A stretch of 30,448 nt of DNA from a virus. Numbering within the stretch: position 1 is the stretch's first letter; the number at the start of each line of letters is the position of its first letter. A program made the position numbers and the translations under genes. Below the pieces are notes generated by a model. That model was not told where the DNA came from. It ran no database searches and saw only the letters and a program-made list of their open reading frames with translations. Shown piece after piece: positions 1,114 to 30,448 of this stretch. The DNA is taken from positions 1 through 30,448 of the IMG/VR virus record IMGVR_UViG_3300045988_004183. One strand, given 5' to 3'.

Positions 1114-2520
1114 ATGGCAGGTTTCAACTCACCGTCCATACTGTTCCTCAACACTTGGGATAAGCCCGAACGTGATTGGAACGGGAATCTGTTTAGGCAG
1201 GCACTCGCGTCAGGGTATACGCGATACGTCGAACTGTACGCCGGAGCCTTCGCGAACTGCATGGTCGCCGTGGAGAACGGTTGGAAGCCGGAGCAGATCG
1301 AGGCGTGCGACGTGTGGGCGTACACCGCAGCGCTCGGATATGCGTATAGCGGGACGCCTCTCACTGAAATGGGAGCAACGGTTGACGGTTCACCAGTACC
1401 GCTCTCCGGGAACGCTGCGGATGACGCGGCTACCGTAATCATGGCGCAATACCGTATGCGTCTCAGCAAGCACGAAGATGTCGATTACTACCGTGAGCTT
1501 CTGGCTGATCTTGACATCAACGACTCGGAACACGTCGGCCAGTTACGGGAGCGAATCGCATCGAATATGGTCAGACTGGGTGGGGTGAAATATGAGGCCA
1601 CCGACCCGATGAAGTACGCGGAACGTATCATGGACGATCCGCACACCATCGTGTTCGCCAATCCTCCTACGTATCCGGGCGCTTATGAAAAGTTCTTCGA
1701 TACCGGGGGTAGGTTCCAATGGGCGGAACCTGAATACAACGTGTTCAATGCTCCCGTTGATATTCCCAAGCTCTGTAAGCTGTTCGATGGTCGTAAGGCG
1801 TTGCTGATATGCCAGCAGCAGCAAACGCCCGGAAACGCCGCAACGACTAGCCCGGTCTACGCTAGGCGTCTGGGTCTGGACAGTGTGATTTACATGAATT
1901 CCAACCGTCCGAACGAGATCAAACGTCTTGTCGGCGGTAACATGGTGACTGTGGCGGCGTCGAAATCGTCGGAGATACCGATACCGATATTGCCCAGAGA
2001 TCATCGGATTACCGAACGTTCCAAAATCGAGGTCGTACCGTTGCATGATAGCGCGGCCCAAGACTCGTATCTGCAAGTCATGCGGCACAGGATATCGGGA
2101 AACGTAAGTTCGATGTGTGTTCTCGTATTAATCGACGGTTACGTTGCCGGGATCATCGGATATGGTTTGCCGAACTTTATGTACACGACTCGATATGCGG
2201 TATTGCGTCAAGCGTTCGGTGTATCCCACGAACGGTATCGGCTTACGAAGCTGGTCACGATGATAGCGTTGCGTCGTTCCACGTTCCAGCTCTGCGCTAC
2301 GCCCAAGTCGCAGCTCATCGTTGATGCGTGCGATCAGCTGGCAACCGTTGAGTACACGCGATACCCAGAGGCGAAGGGGTTGCGCGGCCTGATGAAGCTG
2401 GACAGACGCGACCGCAAGAACGGACAGTACCAATTGCAGTATAAGAGCGATTGGCACGACGAGATCGGCTTAAGGAACATTCTCGGACAGTTCCTAGCCA
2501 AGGAGAACAGGAGGAAATAA
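1114..2520 (+). CDS. Putative DNA N6-adenine methyltransferase (Dam-like alpha-class order) with a large C-terminal extension
   Basis: Track ORF 1066..2520 overlaps the tRNA. First ATG after the tRNA is 1114, with the G-run of the tRNA 3' end acting as an SD. ELYAGAFA (motif I-like) lies about 150 aa before FANPPTYPG (motif IV-like). About 210 extra C-terminal residues are of unknown function. Confidence 0.5.
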   Translation: MAGFNSPSILFLNTWDKPERDWNGNLFRQALASGYTRYVELYAGAFANCMVAVENGWKPEQIEACDVWAYTAALGYAYSGTPLTEMGATVDGSPVPLSGNAADDAATVIMAQYRMRLSKHEDVDYYRELLADLDINDSEHVGQLRERIASNMVRLGGVKYEATDPMKYAERIMDDPHTIVFANPPTYPGAYEKFFDTGGRFQWAEPEYNVFNAPVDIPKLCKLFDGRKALLICQQQQTPGNAATTSPVYARRLGLDSVIYMNSNRPNEIKRLVGGNMVTVAASKSSEIPIPILPRDHRITERSKIEVVPLHDSAAQDSYLQVMRHRISGNVSSMCVLVLIDGYVAGIIGYGLPNFMYTTRYAVLRQAFGVSHERYRLTKLVTMIALRRSTFQLCATPKSQLIVDACDQLATVEYTRYPEAKGLRGLMKLDRRDRKNGQYQLQYKSDWHDEIGLRNILGQFLAKENRRK

Positions 2521-3230
2521 TGGCCGATATCGACACGTCGCAAGAAATGACCATAGCCGACGGTTTGGTAATCAAGTGGGTTGATGTGGTCAATCTCAAG
2601 GAACAAGACCTGAACGCGCAAGTCATGGAACCGCGTAAGTTCGACGCTCTGACACAGAACATCAAGCTACGGGGGATGTTGGAGTCATTGCCGTACTGTT
2701 CGCAACCGAACGGAGAAGGGCCGATAAGTATTGTTTCCGGCCATCATCGTACAAGAGCCGCCGCCCGCGCCGGTATCCAACGTATCCCGGTTATCGTGGA
2801 CACGAAACCTATGACACGTTCCACCATAACGGCGAAGCAGATAGCCGCCAACGAACTCACCGGCCACGCCGACGAGAAACTACTGGCGCAGTTGGTCACT
2901 CAGATGGACAACGTAGACGACTTGTTGCTGAGCGGGCTTGATCAGGACAGTCTACCGCACGTAGAACCGCAGCAAGTCAACCTGAACGGTTTGAATGTGA
3001 AATACGAGTATAAGAACGTGGAGTTTTTGTTTCTGACTCGCGAATACGAGGAACTTGAACAGTTCGTGGATGATTGCAACGCGGATATGCTCGGGTTGGT
3101 GCCTATGGAATTGTACGACGAGTTCGTGCATCAGGTGACATCGTTCGCTTCACGTAATGGAATCAAGAATATGGCTGCTGCGGTTTCCAAGATCATCGAG
3201 ATAGCAAGGAAAGACGCCGAGGAAGAGTGA
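2520..3230 (+). CDS. ParB-like nuclease (ParB/Srx N-terminal) domain protein
   Basis: ATG 2520 overlaps the upstream TAA (TAATG) and follows AGGAGAACAGGAGGA. ISIVSGHHRTRAAARAGIQRIPVIV matches the ParB-N GxxR/HHR box. Confidence 0.7.
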   Translation: MADIDTSQEMTIADGLVIKWVDVVNLKEQDLNAQVMEPRKFDALTQNIKLRGMLESLPYCSQPNGEGPISIVSGHHRTRAAARAGIQRIPVIVDTKPMTRSTITAKQIAANELTGHADEKLLAQLVTQMDNVDDLLLSGLDQDSLPHVEPQQVNLNGLNVKYEYKNVEFLFLTREYEELEQFVDDCNADMLGLVPMELYDEFVHQVTSFASRNGIKNMAAAVSKIIEIARKDAEEE

Positions 3231-4453: not shown

Positions 4454-5047
4454 ATGGCAACCAACAACCTCAGCAACAAGTTCATGCGGGTACTCAACGA
4501 AGTCCCCAACTTCGTGACCGACGAAACCGCACAGGCAGGCAACCGGACTTACAAGTACCTCAACCTCGCCACGATACTCAAAACCATCAAACCCGTTTTC
4601 GAGAAGCACGGGCTTGCATTCAGCCAGCGCGTCACGTTCGACAACACGGGAGAAGCGCGACAGGTCATCGGAACAGTAGAAACCATCATCTTCGACGATG
4701 AAGAACAGATGGTGGCCTGCTCCTACCCGTTCTTCGTGACTGGCGACCCCCAGCAGGTCGGCAGCGCGATCACCTACGCACGCCGCTACAGTCTCTACGC
4801 GGTGTTGGGCATCTTCCCCGACAAGGACGACGACGGCGCGTATGCGAAACAGCGTTACGATACTGCCGACCGTACCATCAGCGCCGAACAGTACGCCGAG
4901 CTGGTCAAGGCGATGGACGTCCACAACATCCCGTCCGAGGCACGCGGCGAGTTCATCAACGGCACTCTGAACCGTCAGGTCAGGGGATGGCGTGGACTCA
5001 CCCAAACCGATTTCCGGAATCTGATGAACGCCATCAACCGAGTGTGA
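4454..5047 (+). CDS. erf: ERF-family single-strand annealing protein
   Basis: RTYKYLNLATILKTIKPVFEKHGL and GSAITYARRYSLYAVLGI...DDDG are hallmark ERF blocks. RBS GAAAGGA. Confidence 0.85.
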   Translation: MATNNLSNKFMRVLNEVPNFVTDETAQAGNRTYKYLNLATILKTIKPVFEKHGLAFSQRVTFDNTGEARQVIGTVETIIFDDEEQMVACSYPFFVTGDPQQVGSAITYARRYSLYAVLGIFPDKDDDGAYAKQRYDTADRTISAEQYAELVKAMDVHNIPSEARGEFINGTLNRQVRGWRGLTQTDFRNLMNAINRV

Positions 5048-5300: not shown

Positions 5301-5511
5301 AGACTTCCCACCAGCCGACAGTCCACCGAAACAAACCATTGGGATGTTTTCGCGGACATCCACGTTCACCATTGTTGGCTGGCGGGAACCATAACTGAAT
5401 ATCGACAAACAAACAAAAATCCGCCACGGCGTTTACATACACCGTTCTGTCGTGGCATTCGGCTGGGCGGGACTCATCACCCGCCCACACCCAACAGAAA
5501 GGACAACCACA

Positions 5512-6420
5512 ATGAAGATCATCAATGTATCGCAAGCCACCGAAACCGAAGCATGGCTCGATGAACGCATGGGCCGTATCACCGGCACTAAAAGCGGCGG
5601 ACTCGCATTGGAACACTACACCCAGACCGACGTGAACAAACTCGTGGAATACCGAGACAAGGCGTTGGAACAGGCAAAGAAAGCGAAGACGCCCGACAAG
5701 GCCAACGAGTATTACAGCAAAGCTCAGGGGTATGACATCAAGATCACCGAAGCCGAAGCCAAGAACAAGCGGCTGAAAGTCGGCGTTGACTTCTGGAAAT
5801 TCCTAGCGGAACTGTGGGCCGAACCAGCGAACGGTGAACCGCCGATGGAACGCGGCCACCGTCTCGAACCCGAGAACATCCAGACCACACTCAAAACGCT
5901 CGGATTCGACCCCGGCGATTGCGTCACCGACTGCGGTATCTGGGAGAGTGACGATGATGACCGTATCGCTTGCAGTCCAGACGCCTACGAGAACACTGAG
6001 AAGCCGACGTGGGCCATCGAATGCAAGTCGCTCGGCTCCGCCTACCATTTGCAGACCGTCGTACCGTGGATGATGCACACCGACGCCATGCGATCCCATA
6101 TCGCCAACCTGAAACCCGAACTGGTCGAGGTCATCGAACAGGTGTTGCCCGAGGACACGCTCGACAGCAAGGCTACCGGCTTCGACTTCCTCCCAGACCA
6201 GTACAAGGCGCAGGTGCTCCAATACTTCGTGGTGTGCGATTCGCTGGAAGTCCTGTATTTCTCGATGTTCGACCCGCGCGTGGTAGGAGCTGCACACCAT
6301 CAGGTCATTCCCGTGTACCGCAAGGACATCACCGAACAGATCGAAGAGCATAAGCGTCGCCAGTTGGCCACGCTCCATATCTCCGACGTGCTGGCCGACG
6401 CTCTGGGGGTGACGTTCTGA
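5512..6420 (+). CDS. YqaJ-like (PD-(D/E)XK) recombination exonuclease
   Basis: ATG 5512 follows GAAAGGA. WLDERMGRITGTKSG near the N-terminus, then ...SPDA... and IECKS (D...ExK). Partner of the ERF gene. Confidence 0.75.
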   Translation: MKIINVSQATETEAWLDERMGRITGTKSGGLALEHYTQTDVNKLVEYRDKALEQAKKAKTPDKANEYYSKAQGYDIKITEAEAKNKRLKVGVDFWKFLAELWAEPANGEPPMERGHRLEPENIQTTLKTLGFDPGDCVTDCGIWESDDDDRIACSPDAYENTEKPTWAIECKSLGSAYHLQTVVPWMMHTDAMRSHIANLKPELVEVIEQVLPEDTLDSKATGFDFLPDQYKAQVLQYFVVCDSLEVLYFSMFDPRVVGAAHHQVIPVYRKDITEQIEEHKRRQLATLHISDVLADALGVTF

Positions 6421-9138: not shown

Positions 9139-10278
9139 CTACTTGATACGGATCGTCTGGCCCGCGTAGATAACATTAGGATTGGCGATGCCGTTGATCT
9201 GCGCGAGATGCTGGTAGGTGGTCCCGTACTTTGCGGCGATACCGCTCAACGTGTCACCAGACTGGATAGTGTACGTCGTAACGGACGGTGACGGTGCGCC
9301 ACCCGGCAGCTTCAACACCTGACCCGGATAAATCAGATTCGGGTTGGCAATACCGTTAAGCTGCTGGAGAGTCTGCCACGAAGTCCCATACTTGGCAGCG
9401 ATACCACTCAACGTGTCACCGGAACGCACCGTATACGAGCCACTACCGGACTGAACCTTAGTGACAGTACCATTGATCTTCAACACCTGACCCGGATAAA
9501 TCAGATTCGGGTCAGACAGATTATTAATCTGCGCCAACACCTGCCAGCTAGTCCCATACATCGACGCGATACCACTCAACGTGTCACCGGAACGCACGGT
9601 ATACGTGCCAGACGCAGGAGTAGACGGAGCAGGAGCGGAAGGCGTCGGCACGTTGGTCACACTCGAATGACCCGCCTTATACGAGTTCCAAGCATTCACA
9701 TCACCATAGAACTTGTCAAGGTCAAGACCGCCTGAATATCCGGGAAGACGACCATTGGAAGAATACTGTCGGATCGCGCACCCATATGCGCCCTCGTTCC
9801 ACGGCGTATCCTGATATCCGGTAGCGTTCATGTTCGCGTACTGCGCTACCCACAATCCACGATCGCCAATGTTCTGCACGTCGTTAAGCATGGACGCTTG
9901 CACGTAGACGATAGGCTGGGAACCTGTACGCTCGTACACACGGTCACAGAACGCCCTGATCCACTGTTGAGCAGACGCGCCAGACCCAAACAGTCCGTTA
10001 CCCTGTGCCTCCCAGTCCAAGCACCATACGACCTTGCCGACCCAATTCGCGCAATTGTTCACGAAGTAGTCAGCTTCGGAAACAGCGTCACCGCCGTTGG
10101 CGTAATGGTATACGCCCACGCACTTTCCCAGACTCAACGCCTGCTCCACTTGCCGGGCGCAATCCGCTGACACGTACCAGCATCCCTCAGTAGCCTTGCT
10201 GATAACGAAATCACACGGCACGGCAGACAGGTCGATACCAGCCTGCCAATTACTGATGTCGATACCGTTCAGAGCCAT
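9139..10278 (-). CDS. Endolysin: GH25 muramidase plus three LysM repeats
   Basis: ATG 10278 follows GGAGGAG. N-terminus is [12 protein letters not shown]...ISKATEG (GH25). Three C-terminal copies of Y(T/I)[16 protein letters not shown]...NPN(L/V)IY(P/A)GQ, also visible as DNA repeats at about 9140-9640. Confidence 0.9.
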
Positions 10279-10289
10279 CGAAACTCCTC

Positions 10290-10421
10290 CTATAGGCTGA
10301 TTATGTATAAGAACAGCCACGCCATGTATAAAACGGCGTAGACCGTCATCAAGACGTGGACTATCAACGAGACGACGGCGAGCAACACTACAAGGATCAC
10401 GCACCGTTTGAAACGTCTCAT
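10290..10421 (-). CDS. Small hydrophobic protein (43 aa), possible holin
   Basis: Hand-translated: [43 protein letters not shown]. Below the ORF-track size cutoff. It ends inside the endolysin RBS. No clear SD of its own. Confidence 0.45.
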
Positions 10422-10492
10422 AGTGTCATCTTATCATCGAAAACGAATCGATATTATTATCACCAATAATGCCCATAAGGAGTCATGTTAGG

Positions 10493-10861
10493 CTAGTCAT
10501 TATCTCCGGCCAGTTCCTCAAGGGACGCGATACGGTCGCGTAGATCATCGGGCAACGACGGTTTAGGATGATTCGCCAAGAATTCAGGTTCGATGATATC
10601 GCAAAACTGGGACAGCCAGTGCCCTAACGCGCGAATATACCCCGTCTCCAAGTCGATGGTGTATTGCAACTCATCACGGGTTTTGATTAGCGCGTCTATC
10701 TTCTGGTCTTGCGTGTCAATCTGCCGTTTCATATCCCCTTGGGCTGAGACTAGTGCCTGATATGCGCTGGTCAGGTCTGACCGTCGGTTAGCTACCCATG
10801 TTATGAATCCTCCGAGGGCTACGCCGCCTACGCCGATGATTGCCGTGAGAATTTCCATCAT
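10493..10861 (-). CDS. Membrane-anchored coiled-coil protein (possible lysis accessory)
   Basis: Track ORF. N-terminal TM (ILTAIIGVGGVALGGFITWV) followed by heptad-like charged sequence. Confidence 0.6.
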   Translation of the reverse strand: MMEILTAIIGVGGVALGGFITWVANRRSDLTSAYQALVSAQGDMKRQIDTQDQKIDALIKTRDELQYTIDLETGYIRALGHWLSQFCDIIEPEFLANHPKPSLPDDLRDRIASLEELAGDND

Positions 10862-10881
10862 GGTTCCATCTTAGACCGAGA

Positions 10882-10907
10882 CGATAATGCCCATTATGTC
10901 AGAAAAG
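10882..10907 (+). repeat. Inverted repeat, left copy (IR-L)
   Basis: CGATAATGCCCATTATGTCAGAAAAG. Its exact reverse complement is at 11682-11707. Contains the dyad ATAATG-CC-CATTAT. Confidence 0.95.
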
Positions 10908-11330
10908 GCAATGGTATGGGAGGCTGAGCCGGAAGACCGTTGGTACAGGTTCGATTTGAAGATGCAAAACGAATCGTCGTTCACTCCGATTCCATACGGC
11001 GGGGGAAGCAGTATTTTCTGGCACCCGAAACTGCGGTTAATCAGCGTAAAGTTGGCTTCGTTTATCTCCCATGTCGGCGTGAAAACGTACAGCGTATATT
11101 TGCCAAAAACTGGGACTTTCGGCGTATCAGAGTCCGTTGAACTTGGTCAGGCTGAGTTCGAGAATTTCACCGGACGAGGCGTTGAGTTGACTTTGAACGG
11201 CAACTACGCTGGCTCAATCTTGGTAGGCCCACAAATGGCGGCCAACGACGTAATCCGTCCGTTGGGAAGCTTCGTCGTTCCGATTCCGAAGAACGTCGAG
11301 GTGCGAGCCACGGGCGGCACGCCACTGTGA
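10887..11330 (+). CDS. Opposite-strand ORF inside the late operon (possible alternative receptor-binding module or moron)
   Basis: This is the only long ORF on either strand across 10862-11346. Start is uncertain (ATG 10887, 10896 or 10911). ATG 10911 is preceded by AGAAAAGG, which lies in IR-L. Confidence 0.55.
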   Translation: MPIMSEKAMVWEAEPEDRWYRFDLKMQNESSFTPIPYGGGSSIFWHPKLRLISVKLASFISHVGVKTYSVYLPKTGTFGVSESVELGQAEFENFTGRGVELTLNGNYAGSILVGPQMAANDVIRPLGSFVVPIPKNVEVRATGGTPL

Positions 11331-11346
11331 TTCAAATCGAGTAATA

Positions 11347-12243
11347 TTACTGCCTCTGCACCGGCCAGCACACGCTGCCACTACGGGCATCGCTAGAACC
11401 GCTCGAACCCATATTCTTCACACTGATAGTCCCGTCAGGTGATACCACGAGAAAGCCAGTATGGCTTGTGCCGTTAAGCACCAACATCGGGTTTGACATC
11501 TCGATTTTCGGACGGTACTCCTGCTTAATCTTCTCACCCCAGTTTACCAAATCCCATGACCCCGAGCCGATTTTTACGGCAGTCACCTGAACTGCGCACG
11601 AGGACTCTCCGTAAATGATGGCTATCGAGCCGTGTTGCCATGCCTTATGCACGGTTTCAAAAACCGGCTTCCACGCGCCTTCTTTTCTGACATAATGGGC
11701 ATTATCGGCCATAGTCACAGCCTCCTGCCCGTCCACCGCGGCAATAGTGTTAAGCTGTTCAAGATCACGCGCCATCAGGATAGCGCTGTTACGAATCATC
11801 GGGGCCGCGTCCGTCGCGACACCGGCGTTAACCGTGGCGATAACAAGACCGTTGATATTCGAGTCAAGCGTACCAGCCGGGAACACATTGAGCTGGCCGC
11901 GCGGAGTCGTACCATGAGACTGTGACGGGTCTTCAACAGTAACCGCAACCTTGTAACTATTGGTGGAGTCTGCGAGTTGCACGGTCGTATTGGTGGTGAT
12001 GGCGTAAGTGTACGCGCCCAAACCGTCCCACGGGCTGATGGTACCGCAATGAGGTTTGACCGTAACAGTCAGACCGCTCACCGTGACCAGAGGACTCGGG
12101 GAACCGTAACGGATTCCAGACAACCCGTTGAACGCGGTACCATCGGACGGCAGAATCAGAGGATTAATGGCGTGCCTGTAATCGTCCGCCGTATACTCCG
12201 GGGAACCGTTCAACGCGGTAAGCGGGTGCATGATAATAGCCAT
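11347..12243 (-). CDS. Tail fibre / receptor-binding (minor tail) protein; codons 179-187 lie in IR-R
   Basis: In frame with track ORF 11347..12249. ATG 12243 follows GGAGGA. Last structural gene before the lysis region. Function is inferred from position. Confidence 0.65.
   Translation of the reverse strand: MAIIMHPLTALNGSPEYTADDYRHAINPLILPSDGTAFNGLSGIRYGSPSPLVTVSGLTVTVKPHCGTISPWDGLGAYTYAITTNTTVQLADSTNSYKVAVTVEDPSQSHGTTPRGQLNVFPAGTLDSNINGLVIATVNAGVATDAAPMIRNSAILMARDLEQLNTIAAVDGQEAVTMADNAHYVRKEGAWKPVFETVHKAWQHGSIAIIYGESSCAVQVTAVKIGSGSWDLVNWGEKIKQEYRPKIEMSNPMLVLNGTSHTGFLVVSPDGTISVKNMGSSGSSDARSGSVCWPVQRQ
11682..11707 (-). repeat. Inverted repeat, right copy (IR-R)
   Basis: CTTTTCTGACATAATGGGCATTATCG on the + strand, the exact reverse complement of IR-L. 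In the fibre frame it encodes ADNAHYVRK. Confidence 0.95.
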
Positions 12244-12245
12244 AA

Positions 12246-12974
12246 TCAATCCTCCGAATCGTCTACACCTATTTTATCTTCGTTGGTGGATAGCGCTTCC
12301 ACCTTAGCTTTGAGCGCGTCCAAATCATCCGCCACCTGCTGAGCGAGGCGAAGCGCCGCCACACCAAGCATGGGATAGTTGATGCCTACCAGCGTGCCGT
12401 CTTCATCGTATTCGCAGAAGAAACCTAAACCGTTTTCATCCAAATTGTCGGCAATCATACCGACCAACGGCTGAGCGTCATCAAGATGCTGGTTCTTGTC
12501 ATCCTTCATCCGATAGACGCACCATTTCACCTTGCGGAGCGCGTCAACAGGAATGTAGTCGTCCGCGTCCACGATATCGGTTTTCACCGCACGAATCGAC
12601 TGAGCCGTTCCCATAGTGCCGTTGGACAATACCCATACGGCGCGCCATTGGCCGGACGTAAACAAGTTATTGTAGGCGTTGACGGTACCAGTACCACCAC
12701 GGTTCGGAGTCAATACCCCCCAGTTCCATTCCTGCGTTTTAGCGTCAATCTCGGAACGGGTGTAACTGTTGCGGGTGATGCTTTCCTGCACACGCTGGTC
12801 AAGATTGTTCGTCAACGTCTGCACTTCCTCATACATTTTCGTGATCTGATCGACCATAGGTTTAACGCTGTTGACGATGCTCGGCGGAAGCTCCTGCAAC
12901 TGGCGTTTGATGTCCGCGAACTGGCGGGCGGTCGCGTCCGCGCTATCGAGACTGAACTTGAATTTGCTCGGCAT
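12246..12974 (-). CDS. Tail fibre protein with C-terminal intramolecular chaperone (peptidase S74-like) domain
   Basis: ATG 12974 follows AGGAGGA. SIRAVK...VKWCVYRMKDD...PLVGMIADNL...GINYPMLGVAALRLAQQV...LKAKVEAL resembles the S74 autoproteolytic chaperone. Confidence 0.65.
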   Translation of the reverse strand: MPSKFKFSLDSADATARQFADIKRQLQELPPSIVNSVKPMVDQITKMYEEVQTLTNNLDQRVQESITRNSYTRSEIDAKTQEWNWGVLTPNRGGTGTVNAYNNLFTSGQWRAVWVLSNGTMGTAQSIRAVKTDIVDADDYIPVDALRKVKWCVYRMKDDKNQHLDDAQPLVGMIADNLDENGLGFFCEYDEDGTLVGINYPMLGVAALRLAQQVADDLDALKAKVEALSTNEDKIGVDDSED

Positions 12975-14103
12975 TATCATCCTCCTGTTGCAATGCAGGT
13001 GTGATAGTCCACACCTGACTGAAATCAATCTCGTAGCCGATGATACGGGCGGAACCGTGATTATAGTCGGGGAAATGCTCGGCGTCTTCCTCCACAGTCC
13101 ATGCGATAAGGTCGCCCGGCTTCCACTCCTCATACACCATTGGAGCGAATAGCAGACTCAAGCCCATAGTGATGGTCTGGGTACCGTTCTGCATCTGCAA
13201 CAACGAGGACTTGGCATGTTCGTTCAACGTACTCTTGTTCTTGATGCTTGTAGACGGTTGGAACACATATTCGAGCCGAGGCCGGTGGGGCTGATCTGCG
13301 ATCATCCAATCGGACTGGGGACGGTCACCCGCGTCAGCCGTACTCACCGCCATGACCGCGTTAGCACCATACCCGTTCGTATAATCCTCCAACAAGGTGA
13401 AAGTGGTCATAACGCTTTCATCGAACGTTGTGCTTGGCGTGGTGGAACCGATACGGTCGGCTACCGTCATGACCGGCTCATAATGACCGTCATTGATGGC
13501 CCGCCAAGAGGTACACCATTCAGGACCGTTCAACACGTTGGCAAGCTCCTGCAATACGCTTAGCAGGGTCTTGTCGCTTTCGGCCTCATACGTGCGGTCA
13601 CGTTTGATGCTGCTCGGTGACGCTTCGACAACGAGGTTGAACCGGTGGTTTTTAAGCGTGGTGGTCACGAGGTCTTCCACTATCTCGCACTGGTCACGAT
13701 TAGTGTACGTGTGATCCTGCACATACACATTATCGAGATAGTGTTCGACGGTTGCCAGTGTCAACGTCAAACCGTCGCCGCGCATTGCACGCTCGCGTTT
13801 GACCACGATACCGCCCCACAACACGGTAGATTCACGCACCAGTAGTATGGCGGCCTGATACGGTGTGGTGGCTTCATCCCAATTGCGGGGAGCGTTGCGC
13901 CACGGGAGAGTGGCCGTTTCGCTGGTCGTTTCCTCGAAACGATACGTCACATGGGTTAGTTGGAGGTCTGGGAGTTCCGCTATCACAGTACCGTCATCCA
14001 ACGTGACGGCCAAGAACTGCAAACCGGAACGCTGCCACAATACACGCTCCGTGCCCGAGGATAATCCGTTCGCCTGCGGCAACCGGTTAGAGATAAAAGA
14101 CAT
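12943..14103 (-). CDS. Tail-associated (Tal-like / prophage-tail family) baseplate protein
   Basis: Track ORF, 386 aa, directly after the Dit-like gene. Call is by position and size. Confidence 0.6.
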   Translation of the reverse strand: MSFISNRLPQANGLSSGTERVLWQRSGLQFLAVTLDDGTVIAELPDLQLTHVTYRFEETTSETATLPWRNAPRNWDEATTPYQAAILLVRESTVLWGGIVVKRERAMRGDGLTLTLATVEHYLDNVYVQDHTYTNRDQCEIVEDLVTTTLKNHRFNLVVEASPSSIKRDRTYEAESDKTLLSVLQELANVLNGPEWCTSWRAINDGHYEPVMTVADRIGSTTPSTTFDESVMTTFTLLEDYTNGYGANAVMAVSTADAGDRPQSDWMIADQPHRPRLEYVFQPSTSIKNKSTLNEHAKSSLLQMQNGTQTITMGLSLLFAPMVYEEWKPGDLIAWTVEEDAEHFPDYNHGSARIIGYEIDFSQVWTITPALQQEDDNAEQIQVQSR

Positions 14104-14114
14104 TCGCCGCCTCC

Positions 14115-15008
14115 TTAGATGTAAGCCGGGTTGAACGTGACCGTCATACGAGCGTTATCAGATGGTTCCTCGGCGCTGAACATCCAGATATTCTCCCCGA
14201 TTTCCGCGTAGCTCCATTCGCGGCGAATCACACTGCCACGTGCCGGATCGGTGCCATCGATAAGAATCTCATGAGTGGCACCGTTGATTAGAATGTAATG
14301 GCCCTCGCCCAAACTGAGGTCGAACGCCATGATATGCCCGCTTGGACTATGCTCAATCTGCGGATTGACCACAGGCCCGTCGACACGAATAGTCACCGGA
14401 CTCGGAGCACTACCCGTGTTAGTCAGACGCACGCTACCCGACACGGTTGTTTCAGACCACACCCACATTGAACCATTGCCCGTGTCTATATCCTCGAAAT
14501 GGTAGGGGAACGTCATACCGCCCTGAGTGTGCGGCAACCCGGTTTTTCCGCTCACTGACTGAGTATCGTAAAGATACGAGTCCAAAGCGGTCAGACCGAT
14601 ACTAAATTTAAGAATGTTCACACCAGCCCACTCCACCAGCGGAGCGGAAGACGACTGCATGACCTGCACTTGACGGCTGATATTCCCCAACTCCACGACA
14701 AGCGACTGTTCAGTGATGTTGAACGAACGTTTGAACGCATCCCAAGAGTTGATACAGTTTTCCGTGCATTTGCCGATGATATGGCCTTCAATGGAGATAG
14801 ACCGGCCTTGAGCCACGGGGATATTGCTGAACCAACCGTCCGACCATGCTTTGTCCTTGGTCTGCAAGGTCGAACCTACGCCATCGAACAGTCCAGAAAC
14901 GTTTTGAAACGTTACGTGCCACTCGCACCCGTATGAGTCGGTTCCGTACAAGGGGAAACCGTTCAGGGTAAGACGAACGTCGCGCGGGTCAAGGGTAAAG
15001 ATAGCCAT
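14115..15008 (-). CDS. Distal tail protein (Dit-like)
   Basis: Track ORF, 297 aa, immediately downstream of the tape measure. Confidence 0.65.
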   Translation of the reverse strand: MAIFTLDPRDVRLTLNGFPLYGTDSYGCEWHVTFQNVSGLFDGVGSTLQTKDKAWSDGWFSNIPVAQGRSISIEGHIIGKCTENCINSWDAFKRSFNITEQSLVVELGNISRQVQVMQSSSAPLVEWAGVNILKFSIGLTALDSYLYDTQSVSGKTGLPHTQGGMTFPYHFEDIDTGNGSMWVWSETTVSGSVRLTNTGSAPSPVTIRVDGPVVNPQIEHSPSGHIMAFDLSLGEGHYILINGATHEILIDGTDPARGSVIRREWSYAEIGENIWMFSAEEPSDNARMTVTFNPAYI

Positions 15009-15034: not shown

Positions 15035-17080
15035 TCACACGTAATGAAAATTAATCACCCTCACGGTTTCCTGTGCCGCTGCGTTCGGGTCAAGCGCGTT
15101 CACCGTAATAGGCGCGCTCACACGCGGGCCACTATTCGCGTTCATGGGCACAGGGCTAGACACTACCGGCATGGGCGTCACGATGGACGATGGTAGAAGA
15201 GAATTCACCATGTCTTCCACCGGACGAGTGGCCGCACGCTCGTTCTCCGATACGCCACGGCCAAGACCAGCAGGAATCATCCGACCTATCTCACGGTCGA
15301 ACACCTTAGACGGGGACGCGATACCCAGTAGGCTCTTGGCACCGTCGATGATACCGCCAACAGCGTTCTTGACTGCTGAGATGGCACCGCCGATGGCGTT
15401 CGTGATGCCGTTAATCAGACCCTGAATAATGTTCTGGCCTGCACTCAGCAACCATGATCCGGCTCCGCTGAACACGCCCATGATACGGCTTGGGATACTG
15501 GTGATGAAATTCATCATCGAGCTAACGCCACTGCTGACAGCACTGGTGATGCCACTCCATGCACTGCTTACCGCGCCCTTGATGCCGTTCCATACACTGC
15601 TGAAAATACCGCTTATGCCGCTCAGCACGCTTGAGATGACGCCTGACACTGCATTGATGGCACCGGAAACGATACTTTGGATACCGTTCCAAACACTGGA
15701 AACGATACTTTGGATACCGTTCCATACTCCAGACCAATCACCGTTAATCGCTGCCAATACGGTGCTGATTATCGCGTTGACAACGTTCATAACGGATGTG
15801 ACAATCGTTTGAATGAATGGGAAAACCGCGTTAATGACACCCTGAATCGCGGAACCCCACGATTGAAACGCTGACTGGATTACCGGAAGCACCGTCTGAA
15901 TCAACGCAGCGATGTTATTAATCACCGGCGTTACAGCAGTCGCGATAACACTCATGGTTTGCCCGATGTTGCTCACTATGGTAGACAACACTGGTGCAAT
16001 GGTCTGGATTGCGGCCGTGATAATAGGCATGATGGCATTACCGAGATTCTGCAAAGCACTCATAAGCGGCTTGAGTGCCGGAAGCAACTGAGATTGCACC
16101 ATTTCCACAACTGGTTGAAACGCTGTCTGGAACGTTGTGCCGATTTGTGAGAGAATCGGGCCGATAGTCTGCACCAGTCCCGTAAAAACGCCACTAAGTC
16201 CGCTGATGCCCTGCGCCAACATGCTGATGCCTGATGTCAACGGGCCTTTGAACTGGTCAAGAATCGTTGTACCCACGCCGACCACGGACGCTTCCAGATT
16301 ACCCATCGCGCCCTCGATAGTGCTAGTGCTGGTAGCGGCTTCCTTCGCGGCGTCCGTCATACCCAAGTCCATTATGGCTTGGTTGAATTCATCGGCGCTG
16401 ATCTCGCCTTTCTCCATCGCGTCGCGGAAGTTCCCGGTATAAGCGCCGTTCTTCAGCATCGCCTCTTGAAGTTTGCCGGATGCACCGGGAATGGCGTCGG
16501 CTAACTGGTTCCAGTTTTCTGTGGTGAGCTTGCCCGCGCCAGCGGTCTGCGTAAGCACCATACCGACCGAGCTGAAAGTTTCCGCGTTACCACCGGCGAC
16601 AGCGTTCAAATTGCCTGCCGCCTCGGCTAGTTTGTCGAAGCCCTGTACTCCGTTCGCGGCAAGCTGAGCGGTCACGTTACGGATATCGCTGATACTGTAA
16701 ACGGTCTGGTCGGCGTAAGTCTGAGTGCTGGCGGTGAGCGCGTCAATCGTACCCGTATCCAGTCCGGCGAAGTTCAGCGTGCTTTTGAACTTGTCCGCAG
16801 AGTCGGAGGCTTCGATAATGTCTCCGGTAAGATCACCGATGGCGTCCACAGCCATACCGATACCCGAGGAAACAAGACCGCCAACGGCACCGGCTGCGGC
16901 ACCGAACTTCCCGAACCCGCTGGAAGACTTACTAGCAGACTTGTCAACGTCACCCAACGCTCCATCAGCCTGTCGCGCCGACTCTTCGATCTGACGGCTA
17001 CCCGATTGAATATCCTTTACGCCAGCGTTCCAATCGCCGGTGTTAATCTCGGCGTCTAGGGTCAGTGTCGAGTCTGCCAT
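15035..17080 (-). CDS. Tape measure protein
   Basis: 681 aa, rich in A/G/S/I/V, with internal repeats (SSVWNGIQSIVS x2 and related). Follows the chaperone pair. TAATG overlap at 17080. Confidence 0.85.
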   Translation of the reverse strand: MADSTLTLDAEINTGDWNAGVKDIQSGSRQIEESARQADGALGDVDKSASKSSSGFGKFGAAAGAVGGLVSSGIGMAVDAIGDLTGDIIEASDSADKFKSTLNFAGLDTGTIDALTASTQTYADQTVYSISDIRNVTAQLAANGVQGFDKLAEAAGNLNAVAGGNAETFSSVGMVLTQTAGAGKLTTENWNQLADAIPGASGKLQEAMLKNGAYTGNFRDAMEKGEISADEFNQAIMDLGMTDAAKEAATSTSTIEGAMGNLEASVVGVGTTILDQFKGPLTSGISMLAQGISGLSGVFTGLVQTIGPILSQIGTTFQTAFQPVVEMVQSQLLPALKPLMSALQNLGNAIMPIITAAIQTIAPVLSTIVSNIGQTMSVIATAVTPVINNIAALIQTVLPVIQSAFQSWGSAIQGVINAVFPFIQTIVTSVMNVVNAIISTVLAAINGDWSGVWNGIQSIVSSVWNGIQSIVSGAINAVSGVISSVLSGISGIFSSVWNGIKGAVSSAWSGITSAVSSGVSSMMNFITSIPSRIMGVFSGAGSWLLSAGQNIIQGLINGITNAIGGAISAVKNAVGGIIDGAKSLLGIASPSKVFDREIGRMIPAGLGRGVSENERAATRPVEDMVNSLLPSSIVTPMPVVSSPVPMNANSGPRVSAPITVNALDPNAAAQETVRVINFHYV
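15665..15724. repeat. 33-bp tandem duplication within the tape measure gene
   Basis: GGAAACGATACTTTGGATACCGTTCCA at 15665-15691 and again at 15698-15724, in frame (11 aa unit). Confidence 0.85.
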
Positions 17081-20616: not shown

Positions 20617-20973
20617 TCAGGCGGACGCCATCAAACCTGCGGCGATCAGAGCGTTCACTACTTGCGTTACTGTGCCGGATGACGGGTTAACGTGAGCGGC
20701 CTTAGTGATCGGGCCAGCAGGCCCCTGCGGGCCACGCTCACCCTGCGGGCCAGCAGGCCCCTTCGGGCCAGCAGGCCCCTGCGGGCCAGCAGGCCCCTGC
20801 GGGCCACGCTCACCCTGCGGGCCACGCTCACCCTGCGGGCCAGCAGGCCCCTTCGGGCCCGTCAAAGACACTGGTTCGCCGGACTTGTCCACGATGTTAA
20901 TGACCTTAACCGTGTTCAGGTTGTCTTCTGGCAGCGCTTTGCCGCCGACTCGTGCGTACATTTCAGCGTTCAT
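20617..20973 (-). CDS. Collagen-like (G-X-Y repeat) protein, possible head decoration or fibre
   Basis: TGATG overlap with the capsid gene stop. 17 consecutive G-X-Y triplets ([18 protein letters not shown]...). Confidence 0.8.
20707..20859. repeat. Near-identical 9/18-bp DNA repeats encoding the G-X-Y tract
   Basis: Repeated GGGCCAGCAGGCCCCT(G/T)C and GGGCCACGCTCACCCTGC units. Confidence 0.85.
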
Positions 20974-22790
20974 CACTTGACCTTCGGCTTGATGACCACG
21001 GCGGACTTCTCAGCGTCCAGACCGCCACCAGCGTAAATCTCCTGAAGATACTCGTTGGTGTTCGTGGACAACGCGAAGTTCGTGAACGCCTCGATGGACG
21101 TATCGCCAACCACCGCGTAGTGGGATGCGGCCATGATGACACCCATAGTGGTGGTGTCGTCCGTGTCAGTCCACCATTCCGGGGTAATGATCTGCTGGAC
21201 GCCGAGGGCGCGGGCCAGAGTATCGTCACCACCGAGAGCGATGTACGTGTTGCCGTTAGCGTTCGCGGACATCAGCAGGTCGGCAACAGTGTCAGCGTTG
21301 CACAGGAGTACTTTGTTGCCCTGCGCTCGCACCATGTGGGAGGCGCGCACGAAGTCCATCAGCGGGGCCGCGTCCGTCATGGTGTAGGAGAGTGCGAAAC
21401 GGTTGCCCTTCCAGTCGGACGTGTTGTCTTCCGCGTCGGTGACGACGCTACGGAAGTGCGCCATGTCCGTGTAGCCGCCGAGAGTGACCTGACGTTCGGC
21501 GGTCTGAACGATGTAGTTCGGGAGTTCCTGAAGCACGTAGCGGAGCAGAGCGCCCGGACGCTGGGTGCGGCGGATATCGCCCTTGTTCAGGGTGATGTAC
21601 TTGTAGGTGTAGTCGGCCTGAAGCTCACGCTTCACGAACGAAAGCTCCTGTTTCTTCTTATTCTGGCCGTACTCGCTCACCGGGTAGCCGTGGGCGCGGG
21701 TCTGATCAGTCAGACCAGTAATGTTGCCGCCGATGGTGAGGCGATCCATGCCGGTCTTGCGCAGCAGGTTCCACAGGCCGGAGCCGCGCGTGTTCAAAGC
21801 GTCCGAGATAGTGGTGATGGCTTCGGTCGGGATGAACTTGTTCACATCGTCAGCGTCAACGCCGAACGATGCGGTGTCCGACATGTTACGGTTCACGGTG
21901 TCAGCCCACTCACGGTGGAACGCTTCGACACCCTTGTTGTCAGTGTTGATAAGGGCACGCTCGAATGCGATCATGGCATCGTCGGAGTCAAGCCACGTCT
22001 TACGGTCATGCGAGAACTTCACAGTCCCCGACTGGTGGGCCGCGTGGTTGGCTTTGTTGATGATGATGGTCTTGCGACCGCTGGAAGTCTGCACGGGTTC
22101 CTCCGGTGCTGGAGTGTTTTCCTGATTGTCAGATTCGGACTGTTCTCCGATGGCTTCGGTGATGTCATCGAGAGCGCCCTGCATGATGTCACCGATAGAC
22201 GTGGTGAGCTGTTCCGCCTCGTCCGGCGTGAGCTTGAACTGGGCGATGGTACGCGCCAGTTTCTTCAGGAGTTCCGGGTTCATGGTGTCTCCATTCGTGT
22301 TGTTGCGGCTGTTGATTGCGGTGAAAGCGGCCCTTGGGTCGGCCCCACGATATACGACGCTGATTTCCAGAAGTTCGCCATCGTGGATGATGCCGTCCTT
22401 GCCGGGACGCTGGTTGAATTCAACGGTGATGCTGAAACTGTTGGTCAAACATCCGTCTGCTGCAAGCTGGCGGATACGTTCGCCTTGGTCTACCTCACTG
22501 AGTTTAGCCTCGGCCATTAGTCCAGCGTCGGTCATCCACAGTCGGGTGATTGCACCCGCTTGGCATTCGATGCTTGGCATGTGGTCGATCAGCAACGGTA
22601 GTGATAGTTTGTCGGACTCGGTGAGGTCGGACACGAGTTTCAGAGTGCCGTCGATTAACGGAGCTTTCAGTGTCTTCAAGTCTACGGTGAGTCCGTCGCA
22701 CATCACTTTGCCGCTGTTGGCGAGGAAGGTGAGGGTACGACCATTGGTTTCAGGGGCACCGCTGTTGGAGAAGCTCTTGCGAGTCTTCAT
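20973..22790 (-). CDS. Prohead protease - scaffold-like linker - HK97-type major capsid protein fusion
   Basis: 605-aa single ORF. N-terminal ~170 aa resemble the prohead serine protease (..LLIDHMPS..), followed by an acidic helical region, then a capsid-sized C-terminus. AAAGGG RBS. Confidence 0.65.
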
Positions 22791-26949: not shown

Positions 26950-27108
26950 TTACGCGAGGATGTAGGTTATGAGGAGTTTGAGTAGGGCGATGGTGCCGGT
27001 GGTGATGAGGAGTACGGCTAGGGTGATGAGTAGGCCGCCGAGGATGCGGCCTAGCTTGTAGCCGGGTGTGGTGTTGCGGAAGTAGTCGAATTCGTTTGGT
27101 TTTTTCAT
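26950..27108 (-). CDS. Small membrane protein
   Basis: In frame with track ORF 26950..27198. ATG 27108 overlaps the RusA stop (ATGA). One long TM segment (LGGLLITLAVLLITTGTIALL). Confidence 0.5.
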   Translation of the reverse strand: MKKPNEFDYFRNTTPGYKLGRILGGLLITLAVLLITTGTIALLKLLITYILA

Positions 27109-27554
27109 TGGTTTGGTTTCCATGTGATTGTGAGGGATACGCCGGTGGCGGTGTTGTCGGCGTATCGTTTGTGGCTGGTTACGTCGGTGATCTGACAATC
27201 ATCGTGCCAGATGTGGGTTTCGGTTATGGCGTCGTATAGGGCGCGTTGGAGTTTGTCTATGTCTGGTTTGACTGTGGGGTGTTTTCGTTTTCTGGGTGGG
27301 ATGGTTTTGGGTCTGGGTAGGTAGAACGTGGTTTCTACGGTCACGTATGAGTCGTGGGGGATGGTGGGTGTGCGGTGGCTTAGGATGGTGTCGCGCACGT
27401 GGTCACGCCACGGGCGTTCCTTTTTGTCCATTGGTATGAGGCGGGTTACGGGTTTGCCGGTGGTTCGGCTCCTGCCGGTGATTGGCCGGTAGGAGCCTTT
27501 ACTGGCTGGTATGCCGGGAATGAACAGGCTGAATGCGTATGGTTCGCCGGTCAT
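27105..27554 (-). CDS. rusA: RusA-like Holliday junction resolvase
   Basis: ATG 27554 (ATGA overlap). KPDIDKLQRALYDAITETHIWHDDCQI matches the RusA D-x-D-N/K...DD block. Confidence 0.75.
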   Translation of the reverse strand: MTGEPYAFSLFIPGIPASKGSYRPITGRSRTTGKPVTRLIPMDKKERPWRDHVRDTILSHRTPTIPHDSYVTVETTFYLPRPKTIPPRKRKHPTVKPDIDKLQRALYDAITETHIWHDDCQITDVTSHKRYADNTATGVSLTITWKPNQ

Positions 27555-28162
27555 TGGTTGATCTCCTCCAGATCGAATGTCGGTTGCGTCTCCGCCTTGA
27601 GTTTGAGCGTGCGCAGTATGTCGGCACGGTTGCTTTGATGCTTGTAGGCTAGTTGGTTTTGGCCGACGTATTTGAATCGTTGACCGCAATTATGGCAGAA
27701 GAGCGGGTCAGGGGTGTTCTTGTAGATTTTGAGAATTCGTCGGTAATATTCGGCGTCGTTTTCGTGTTGCCCGTTGATGCAGCGCTGTGTGGTGTCTGGC
27801 CAGATCAACGCTCCGCAACGTGGGCAGTATGAGACGGGTGGGATGCCGTCCACGGGTTTCGGACTGGCGGTGATGAACTTCATGGGCGTCCAGAAGTCGC
27901 CGGTTTTGCTGAGCATGTCACGGTAGTTTTTCACGAGGCCTATGAGGTCGAATGATTCAGCGGTGAGACAGCTTTCGAGGATGTCGAATTCGTCCATACT
28001 GTTGACGAACGCATAACGTTCCAGCAGGTAGAGTAGGGCTACCGGGATGCTGTTGAGTTCGTTCGCGTCCTCGTAGTCATAGAGGGTTATGGTGGTGTCT
28101 TCGCGTTCATCTTCCGGGCAGTTCTGCCACACCTTGACGTAGGCACGTTTCGTGAATTTCAT
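27551..28162 (-). CDS. Hypothetical protein with two CxxC pairs (zinc ribbon)
   Basis: Track ORF. AAGGAGTAATC-ATG. Contains CPRCG...CHNCG. Confidence 0.65.
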   Translation of the reverse strand: MKFTKRAYVKVWQNCPEDEREDTTITLYDYEDANELNSIPVALLYLLERYAFVNSMDEFDILESCLTAESFDLIGLVKNYRDMLSKTGDFWTPMKFITASPKPVDGIPPVSYCPRCGALIWPDTTQRCINGQHENDAEYYRRILKIYKNTPDPLFCHNCGQRFKYVGQNQLAYKHQSNRADILRTLKLKAETQPTFDLEEINQ

Positions 28163-30087: not shown

Positions 30088-30448
30088 ATGTCCGATACGA
30101 GTATAGCACAGAACACTGGTTTTTCGATGCTGCCGAATTGGGCGGTGGACGATGACCGGTTGGGCGGCTACGACCTGCTGGTGTACATGGCGCTGATACG
30201 CCACGCCGACAACACCGGCATATGCTGGCCGAGCTTGGAACGGCTGGCGAAGATAGCGCGTTGCTCACAACCCACGGTATCCAAGAGCCTCAACAGGCTT
30301 GAGCAACTGGGGTACATTCGACGGGTCAAGGCCGAAGGCAGGGCCAACCGGTATCACGTCTCGTTGTGGCAGCCGACCCCAAAACAGGGTTATGACCCTG
30401 TACCGACCCCAAAACCTGCTTTTGACCCCTCAAAACCTGCTTTTGACC
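30088..30448 (+). CDS. Replication initiator / replisome organiser, N-terminal winged-HTH part (continues at 1..582)
   Basis: ATG 30088 follows AAAGGTGG. FSMLPNWAVDD...LLVYMALIRHADNTGICWPSLERLAKIARCSQPTVSKSLNRLEQLGYIRR is the HTH_36-type fold of phage replication proteins. The ORF is open to the window end. Confidence 0.8.
   Translation, partial: MSDTSIAQNTGFSMLPNWAVDDDRLGGYDLLVYMALIRHADNTGICWPSLERLAKIARCSQPTVSKSLNRLEQLGYIRRVKAEGRANRYHVSLWQPTPKQGYDPVPTPKPAFDPSKPAFD
30375..30448. repeat. Iteron array, left portion (30394-30448 duplicates bases 1-55)
   Basis: GACCCCAAAACAGGGTTAT (30375-30393) is followed by the same iterons as at 12-55. ACAGGGT-tatg-ACCCTGT forms a small hairpin. Confidence 0.7.

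Follow-up and report, generated by a model that had tools for sequence, protein, structure and literature searches.

The stretch of viral DNA analysed here (IMG/VR record IMGVR_UViG_3300045988_004183, positions 1 to 30,448; 'the window' below means all 30,448 nucleotides of it) is the genome of a phage in which the gene for a putative receptor-binding protein (RBP) runs into a segment bounded by inverted repeats. The left arm of the repeat, CGATAATGCCCATTATGTCAGAAAAG, occupies 10882..10907 on the plus strand and its exact reverse complement, the right arm, lies at 11682..11707 on the minus strand, giving a perfect 26-bp inverted repeat with 774 nucleotides between the arms. These nucleotides hold the last 111 codons of the RBP gene (the open reading frame (ORF) at 11347..12243/12249, minus strand) and a second ORF, ORF2 (10887..11330, plus strand), the two converging 16 bp apart. 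An earlier note, made from the DNA letters alone, had singled out this arrangement as a candidate host-range switch, describing the repeat as other than a chance occurrence and as containing the dyad ATAATG-CC-CATTAT. The dyad is indeed there, no further copy of the repeat with three or fewer mismatches was found and 100 dinucleotide-preserving shuffles gave no match. That the genome is closed, as the note had also stated, is borne out by a 55-bp terminal overlap (30394-30448 is the same as 1-55) and by the relative L087, which is collinear across the window ends.

The RBP gene follows those for Dit, a Tal-like protein and a tail-fibre protein and precedes the lysis genes. Its 298-amino acid product has no Pfam match and is classed in PHROGs simply as 'virion structural protein', but an AlphaFold model (predicted local distance difference test score, pLDDT, 65) matches the RBP of lactococcal phage p2 in Foldseek over ~270 columns (E 1e-5 to 2e-4, probability 1.00; template modelling (TM) score 0.25-0.29). 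Next come the RBP heads of phage TP901-1, and the chimeric TP901-1/p2 RBP structures 3D8M and 3DA0 also figure among the fold matches. A shoulder-neck-head architecture is thus likely rather than proven, and on the same model the repeat probably sits at the neck/head boundary. The constant part of the protein (shoulder and neck, residues 1 to ~179) would be encoded outside the invertible segment (11708..12243, minus strand), the expressed head, cassette A, inside it (11347..11681, minus strand), and facing it, also inside, is the silent head cassette B within ORF2 (10908..11330, plus strand). The model of head B is all-beta (pLDDT 85), and its best fold matches, none of them significant (E 0.05-0.4), are the receptor-binding heads of adenovirus, reovirus and lactococcal phages. 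We presume that the heads bind receptors.

Further clues to the function of the locus come from a comparison of about 80 related genomes of ~30 kb, with 79 IMG/VR loci used for the RBP alignment. The RBP family is very common in human gut metagenomes, with more than 2000 database relatives (protein clusters), on contigs of ~30 kb. Residues 1-189 are 85-92% identical in the 79 loci whatever head comes next, and the remainder changes completely at the repeat; for the part encoded at 11708..12243 the same range applies to about 70 relatives. The junction carries a conserved linker, A-D-N-A-H-Y-V-R-x-x-G-x-W, and each stored head begins with this same linker. At the DNA level, a core sequence, GATAATGCCCATTATGT, is found once in the RBP gene at a fixed position, with zero, one or two more copies downstream that are nearly always in the opposite orientation: the pattern is '+-' in 42 loci, '+' in 22, '+--' in ten and '++-' in one. 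In the window, two sites are good and a third is degenerate.

Opposite-facing silent sites number 68, of which 37 open an intact ORF of 95-163 amino acids in the D-N-A-H-Y-V frame; the other 31 head decayed stubs. About ten head types can be told apart and seven of these have been seen both expressed and silent, in a census made without the word-indexed database search with ORF2, a search that is non-exhaustive and missed the query's own cluster. Cassette A of the window belongs to type 4, expressed in 12 relatives and silent in L087, while cassette B aligns with cassettes in L002, L010, L008 and L080. Several cassettes can be combined in one relative, as in the layouts +G -H -E and +F +H -G.

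Both orientations of the segment occur among these genomes, with breakpoints exactly at the repeat. The clearest case is L087, which is ~90% identical to the window genome-wide and collinear with it, differs only by inversion of window 10882-11711, and has both heads intact; here the ORF2 head is expressed as part of an in-frame fusion of 327 amino acids. Further pairs of isomers are L014 and L069 versus L021, L080 versus L008 and L009, and L047 versus L056. Such pairs run collinear as far as the repeat, the DNA between the arms is then reverse-complemented at the identity level of the flanks, and collinearity resumes at the other arm. The +F +H -G layout (L013) is the one expected from nested inversion across three sites. 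In the inverted pairs L014, L021 and L069 the exact identity between arms extends over merely 14-19 nucleotides, which to our knowledge is very short for homologous recombination and below the useful range of annealing-type recombinases.

ORF2, moreover, is a real alternative C-terminus: in relatives with 90% or more identity in that module it is expressed as part of 327-residue in-frame fusions with the constant part (P0176 and P0178), and the 90%-identity cluster to which ORF2 belongs holds proteins of 327 residues reading ...ADNAHYVRKGNVWEAEPEDRW..., which is the predicted flipped fusion. The inversions and in-frame fusions of the relatives together support the earlier proposal of an invertible C-terminal switch in a virion receptor-binding protein, and we have high confidence, from these genome comparisons, that the family possesses an invertible RBP head system.

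The copy in the window is a special case. Flipping its segment gives the reading ...ADNAHYVRK-GNGMGG-stop, just as the earlier note had worked out by hand, but the interpretation built upon this, a switch between a single chain and a split two-protein form, is not supported: the frame mismatch comes from one extra G, and in-frame fusion is the norm in the family. The G lies at 10913/10914 (AATGGTATGG at 10910-10919, as against AATGTATGG in L002 and L010) and places cassette B +1 out of frame with the D-N-A-H-Y-V-R-K linker, hence the premature stop in the window where relatives give in-frame fusions. The same insertion is present in two further assemblies, L081 and L082 (runs ERR209823 and ERR209824, possibly from the same individual), and is therefore real. 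Inversion here would yield a truncated, probably non-functional RBP. Judging by its relatives, the out-of-frame flip is a lineage-specific defect and not a design feature, and the switch in the window is damaged, which agrees with the decay of 46% of silent sites family-wide.

Silent cassettes that are intact appear to be maintained by selection. For head type 3 the ratio of nonsynonymous to synonymous substitution (dN/dS) is 0.31 in silent copies and 0.40 in expressed ones. The 99-amino acid head of type 7 (WKLKRKTITFGSV...) is silent in all eight of its carriers (for example at L018 5177, L038 4540, L059 5177, L064 5177 and L068 5177) and is never expressed among 77 genomes, yet its dN/dS is 0.085 at a dS of 0.74. 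Purifying selection thus acts on silent cassettes as on expressed ones, which argues that they are expressed often enough for selection to see them. Independent expression of the silent cassettes from a start of their own was considered and is unlikely, since no conserved in-frame start codon lies upstream of the linker; gene-caller extensions of these cassettes run antisense through the neighbouring holin-like gene.

What enzyme might catalyse the inversion? The earlier note had found no recombinase gene in the genome, and a Pfam scan of its ~50 ORFs, including the gene that spans the junction of the circular map, agrees: no serine, tyrosine or DDE recombinase was detected, with no match to the Resolvase or Phage_integrase families. 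Probes for Hin, Gin, gamma-delta resolvase and XerD, their sequences entered by hand, returned only noise in six-frame tblastn against the window and the loci of the ~80 relatives, a weak XerD-probe match in L052 being dismissed as noise in a low-complexity reverse-frame ORF. Nor is there a Phage_integrase-family member among the called genes of L086 and L087. The genome encodes no invertase as far as Pfam can show, and a host-supplied enzyme, one of the possibilities raised in the note, is the best explanation.

The probable host is a Bifidobacterium. The closest isolates are lytic phages of Bifidobacterium asteroides from the honey-bee gut, with portal proteins 48% identical over 97% of their length, and B. 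adolescentis phages show a weak DNA match to the window. The phage family is an abundant, ~30-kb, apparently strictly lytic one of the gut, probably of Bifidobacterium type. When a profile of the RBP constant part was run against 185,579 species-representative genomes no relative was found, and prophage relatives were rejected as a source of the invertase for this reason.

The repeat itself offers a strong hint as to the enzyme. The earlier note had read it in the manner of the hix and gix sites of serine invertases, as two half-sites around a 2-bp core. The DNA does not consist of two 12-bp half-sites flanking such a core, however: the arms of the dyad are 6 bp and the flanks match Xer-binding arms, so that the site is better read as 11-6-11 and is nearly identical to actinobacterial and Bifidobacterium dif. 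Site 1 (11685..11712, minus strand) reads ATGGCCGATAA-TGCCCA-TTATGTCAGAA, with a XerC-type arm at 11712-11702, the centre at 11701-11696 and a XerD-type arm at 11695-11685; it lies inside the RBP gene at the neck/head junction and encodes M-A-D-N-A-H-Y-V-R-K. Site 2, inverted and at the head of the silent cassette (10877..10904, plus strand), reads CGAGACGATAA-TGCCCA-TTATGTCAGAA, with its XerC-type arm at 10877-10887, centre at 10888-10893 and XerD-type arm at 10894-10904. For comparison, the dif of Frankia alni, the actinobacterial seed, is CACGCCGATAATGCACATTATGTCAAGT and that of B. adolescentis and B. longum is GCCGATAATGTACGTTATGTCAGAT, the Bifidobacterium pattern being (G/T)CCGATAA-TGTACG-TTATGTCAGAT (Kono et al. 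2011). The phage site GCCGATAATGCCCATTATGTCAGAA, or GCCGATAA-TGCCCA-TTATGTCAGAA, agrees with this pattern at eight of eight inner positions of the XerC arm and at ten of 11 positions of the XerD arm.

To quantify the resemblance, every 28-mer of the genome was scored against the 19 specified arm positions of dif from Bifidobacterium, the presumed host genus. Site 1 scores 18 and site 2 scores 17, nothing else in the genome exceeds 13, and the best score in 400 composition-matched simulated genomes was 16. Among the matches listed in a database search, at least 120 genomes carry the exact arms, each time once per contig in the manner of a single-copy chromosomal site, where about four would be expected by chance. 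Almost all of these genomes are Actinomycetota and many are Bifidobacterium, and their central regions are mostly TGTACG, TGCACA or TGTACA.

Conservation within the phage family points the same way. The part of site 2 to the left of the centre is non-coding yet conserved family-wide, the XerC-arm bases CGATAA being kept in silent copies, and the conserved core ends sharply at the Xer-arm positions whilst the linker continues at the protein level. A dif-like site is missing from the junction in relatives without silent cassettes, namely the bee-gut Bifidobacterium phages and the distant clade L075/L077/L079; this clade lacks any convincing inverted repeat there, an 18-nucleotide match of 83% in L079 being judged to be due to chance. 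A test of synonymous sites found 11 of 40 twofold codons invariant and all four codons of the site ending in T (P ~0.014 from codon usage); as conservation is high throughout the constant region, this is only suggestive of constraint on the DNA. On its sequence, then, the repeat is a dif mimic. The bee-gut Bifidobacterium phages BlindBasel1 (L088) and BlindUri1 (L089), from 3501 to ~4450, share the RBP constant part and diverge completely after about residue 191; the module boundary is that of the window family, yet there is neither a dif-like site nor a stored cassette.

Tyrosine recombinases require identical central regions in the two partner sites, and the behaviour of the central 6 bp here is informative. 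The centre varies between genomes (TGCCCA, TGCTCA, TGTCCA, TGCGCA and TACTCA, that is, TGNNCA and TACNCA), whilst sites 1 and 2 of the window share TGCCCA. Across the family, partner sites have the same centre in 28 of 36 intact cassettes as against 11 of 31 decayed stubs (Fisher p = 6e-4); random pairing gives about ten of 36, with a maximum of 18 in 5000 permutations. The centre of the phage site differs from the host-type TGTACG at three of six positions. There is a precedent in Acinetobacter plasmids, where dif-like sites in opposite orientation undergo reversible inversions driven by host XerC/D and the active pairs have an identical centre (PMC9947245).

We therefore put forward the following scheme, each step of which is conditional. 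The linker DNA would be a 28-bp copy of the host dif, comprising XerC arm, 6-bp centre and XerD arm, and the host tyrosine recombinases XerC and XerD would bind the two inverted sites; strand exchange at the shared centre would then invert the segment and fuse a different head in frame. With TGCCCA in place of the host's TGTACG, the phage sites could recombine with one another without completing recombination with the chromosome, and a non-host centre may in this way keep the phage from recombining with its host. A more speculative addition is that the phage RusA protein could resolve junctions left by a single Xer strand exchange. Overall, we consider it fairly probable that the locus is a shufflon-like set of RBP head cassettes at dif mimics, inverted most likely by host XerC/XerD. 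As to the enzyme, the match to dif and the pairing of centres lead us to favour XerC/XerD with moderate confidence.

Several observations weigh against this interpretation. Chromosomal Xer recombination normally needs activation by FtsK at the septum, and no XafT-like activator (DUF3653) was seen in Pfam scans of the window ORFs. Exact identity between arms varies from 2 to 46 nucleotides with variable ends, a pattern that resembles homologous exchange or gene conversion, and ERF, YqaJ and RusA are all encoded by the phage; conversion driven by homology would likewise make the arms, shared centre included, evolve in concert. Some cassettes have not kept the outer half of the XerD-type arm (for example TTATGTATGTG, type F). 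That 31 of 68 silent sites are decayed, and that the window's own cassette is frameshifted, implies that switching is too infrequent to keep every cassette intact. In the case of this particular strain the idea of ongoing flipping was not upheld: the predicted truncated protein is missing from a collection of 15 billion proteins and the flipped-junction pattern is absent from JGI metagenome contigs. The search of 185,579 genomes, made with the RBP profile and not with CRISPR spacers, turned up neither an integrated relative nor a direct link to the genome of a host. The RBP model is of only moderate confidence (pLDDT 65) and its global TM-scores to the p2 RBP are low (0.25-0.29). Finally, inversion within a population and the action of XerC/XerD on the sites would both be read from comparisons between sequences.

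Some of these points are just what would be expected were the 17-46-bp linker to serve merely as a short inverted homology, with ERF/YqaJ or host RecA recombining the copies and homogenising them. The window and its relatives encode ERF, the YqaJ exonuclease, RusA and SSB, the tracts of exact identity (2-46 nucleotides) have variable ends, the arms evolve in concert and the 31 decayed cassettes of 68 are what rare events predict. Homology leaves unexplained, however, why the linker should spell dif arms at 17-18 of 19 positions, and why dif-like site and silent cassettes should co-occur in one clade only; it also sits uneasily with inversions between arms sharing 14-19 nucleotides and with a core that stops sharply at the Xer-arm positions although the protein linker goes on. 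We regard this explanation as possible but rather unlikely. The host or a resident prophage might instead provide a dedicated invertase in trans, as the earlier note had suggested, either a tyrosine recombinase of the Rin type or a serine recombinase of the Hin/Gin type. The phage has no recombinase, Bifidobacterium prophages encode Rin and are also known to have an inverting RBP locus that lacks a recombinase (PMC6109161), and the 6-bp dyad around CC can be read as a serine-invertase core. Yet the site is unlike rix (TTCCCTAACCC) and unlike the 8-bp CAGGGTTA of that second locus whilst being nearly identical to dif, and the variation between genomes fills a 6-bp centre, not a 2-bp core. An enzyme borne by prophages would, moreover, allow a lytic phage to switch in some hosts only, whereas XerC/D is, as far as we know, universal in hosts. 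A trans-acting invertase of this kind is accordingly improbable.

The dif-like site might instead serve for Xer-mediated integration at the chromosomal dif, as in the integrative mobile elements exploiting Xer (IMEX) CTXphi, TLCphi and XacF1, this being lysogeny without an integrase and inversion a by-product. A single 142-kb contig does join the phage family to bacterial DNA with a genuine dif. This contig was rejected as a prophage, being chimeric via an IS605-family TnpB: its extra ORF of 413 amino acids is an IS605 TnpB with a second copy nearby, the 78-bp 'att-like' repeat (positions 1-78, recurring 31.2 kb further on) is the end of an insertion sequence (IS), and the chromosomal dif is intact ~50 kb from the phage end. 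With the RBP constant part in none of the 185,579 genomes, a centre unlike the host's at three of six positions, and inverted pairs in a coding linker, in frame with alternative heads, which an attachment site has no need of, integration strikes us as very improbable. Equally hard to credit is the absence of any switch, with the repeat either left over from an old duplication of the 3′ end of the RBP gene or acting as an operator or RNA duplex, and with the opposite-strand ORF dead. The frameshift in the window's silent cassette and the lack of a flipped form of this strain would suit such a view, which is nevertheless largely refuted by the comparative data: three or more pairs of cassettes are seen in either orientation, their breakpoints lying at the repeat, purifying selection acts on silent cassettes, partner sites co-vary and the same cassette is fused in frame in close relatives. 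The RNA-duplex and operator alternatives, offered in the earlier note, account for none of this.

How would a switch driven by XerC/XerD compare with known systems? Close parallels in organisation are the Mu G, P1 C and p15B Min segments (inverted by Gin, Cin and Min), in which, as here, a constant N-terminus lies outside and alternative C-terminal receptor modules face each other inside an invertible segment, inversion at short inverted sites fuses a new module in frame and multi-site arrays allow nested inversions. Those systems have their own adjacent serine invertase, a Fis-dependent enhancer and 26-bp sites with a 2-bp core, whereas the closed genome studied here has no invertase gene and a dif-type site of 11-6-11. 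Bifidobacterium prophages possess the Rin shufflon and a second inverting RBP locus without a recombinase, for which a trans-acting enzyme was proposed (Mavrich et al. 2018, PMC6109161). The probable host genus is the same, and there too C-terminal variable genes of an RBP invert with respect to a gene for a constant N-terminus. Rin, however, comes with an XerD-like tyrosine invertase acting at 11-bp rix sites, the second locus has 8-bp sites and both are found in temperate phages; the window family is small and non-integrating and has a 28-bp dif mimic, which points to a specific and universal host enzyme pair. With R64 Rci and Rin the locus has in common several cassettes and sites and hence a capacity for nested inversion, but no dedicated tyrosine recombinase lies beside the cassettes and the repeat is unrelated to rix. 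The locus would thus work like the Mu G, P1 C, Min and Rin switches whilst standing apart from them in having no recombinase in cis and another class of site.

Among Xer-exploiting elements, the pdif (pXerC/D) modules of Acinetobacter likewise have no recombinase of their own, and consist of opposite 28-bp dif-like pairs with an identical 6-bp centre in active pairs. They are plasmid units that carry resistance genes whole, whereas in this lytic phage of a presumably Gram-positive host the sites lie in frame inside coding sequence, so that inversion would rebuild a chimeric protein. IMEX phages (CTXphi, VGJphi, TLCphi and XacF1) are also integrase-less and exploit host XerC/XerD through a dif-like site; these have one site and integrate at chromosomal dif, whereas here two inverted sites would act on each other and no integration was seen. 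The RBPs of lactococcal phages p2 and TP901-1 have the shoulder-neck-head organisation that is predicted here, with heads exchangeable at the neck/head junction, but lactococcal phages swap heads between genomes over evolutionary time, whilst the family described here keeps its spare heads within one genome, behind recombination sites. The locus has the sequence hallmarks of Xer-exploiting elements, and its logic appears closest to that of the pdif modules and the recombinase-less locus of Mavrich et al. (2018).

In the searchable literature we found no equivalent description of an Xer/dif-based switch of a phage RBP or tail fibre. We lean, by a little more than an even chance, towards the view that lytic gut Bifidobacterium phages have put a copy of dif in the neck/head linker of their RBP, and shuffle stored heads with the universal dimer-resolution enzymes of the host, XerC/XerD, as an invertase that costs them nothing; if so, it would be the first recombinase-free Xer host-range shufflon in a phage and the first dif to double as coding sequence, with a chimeric protein rebuilt in frame. 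Tail-fibre switches are usually spotted through an adjacent invertase gene; one that borrows Xer is invisible to that logic and to annotation pipelines, so that similar systems may be widespread and overlooked. Known cases of Xer hijacking are IMEX integration and the shuffling of plasmid modules, and to these, if the proposal is correct, would be added the programmed diversification of a protein in a lytic phage; host-range bet-hedging could then be had by a virulent phage of 30 kb without the cost of a recombinase gene. The family probably preys on Bifidobacterium, a genus whose lytic phages and receptors are poorly known, and the catalogue of about ten head types, together with a defined junction, provides a map for altering or predicting host range.

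The head B domain has counterparts outside the family. At 55-61% identity it forms the C-terminus of 225-amino acid tail proteins in integrase-bearing prophages (L083 10001-10678, GCA_963597155.1; L084; L085), where it is joined through an analogous linker, NGAY-x-YTGS-x-W. These prophages are temperate, with integrase, holin and amidase genes; head domains would thus be common to lytic and temperate phages of the presumed host group.

The late genes lie on the minus strand in the order terminase, portal, capsid and tape measure protein (15035-17080), followed by Dit (14115-15008), the Tal-like minor tail protein (12943-14103), a tail-fibre protein with an intramolecular-chaperone domain (12246-13133) directly before the RBP gene, the RBP gene itself, a holin-like membrane/coiled-coil protein (10493..10861; phrog_1397, unknown function) and a GH25/LysM endolysin (9139-10404), all on this strand. 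The holin-like gene is just outside the invertible segment. A third dif-like site is found downstream of it, in the window as the degenerate remnant CACCAATAATGCCCATAAGG (10458..10476, plus strand), so that the gene is bracketed by sites 2 and 3. The core of the third site is intact in L087 (~11793), L086 (~13568), L008 (~5799) and L012 (~5779), where it is followed only by a stub of 18 amino acids (DNAHYGQSDGTWNMNRLG, then a stop). In the distant cassette-less clade (L079 4957-5304) the RBP and endolysin genes are encoded on one strand and the holin-like gene on the other, whereas in the window all three are co-oriented. IS605-family insertions, either TnpA with TnpB or TnpB alone, are present in some family members: that in L086 (11435-12969) lies between the RBP cassettes and the holin-like gene, and in L375 (10719-11960 and 16154-17371; contig IMGVR_UViG_3300014917_000051) the insertion lies in the convergent intergenic region, where the IS gave rise to the chimeric 142-kb assembly that resembles a prophage.

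The early genes include those for an ERF single-strand annealing protein (4454..5047, plus strand; Pfam ERF, E 3.5e-21), which is the phage's own homologous-recombination function, its partner, a YqaJ-type exonuclease (5452..6420, plus strand; Pfam YqaJ, E 4e-6), the RusA Holliday-junction resolvase (27105..27689, minus strand; Pfam RusA, E 7e-17), SSB, a DAM-like methylase, a ParB-N domain protein and an HTH_36/DnaD-like replication protein that spans the circular junction. Inside this last gene, at window ~30-95, are three tandem 21-bp repeats (CCCTCAAAACCTGCTTTTGAC), translated as PKPAFDPS repeats, which have the look of iterons placed inside the gene for a replication initiator. The DAM-like methylase is fused to a GNAT-like domain (1066-2520) and followed by the ParB-N protein (2451-3230), and the two may constitute a DNA-modification module. 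A small protein with collagen triple-helix repeats (20617-20976) adjoins the major capsid gene.

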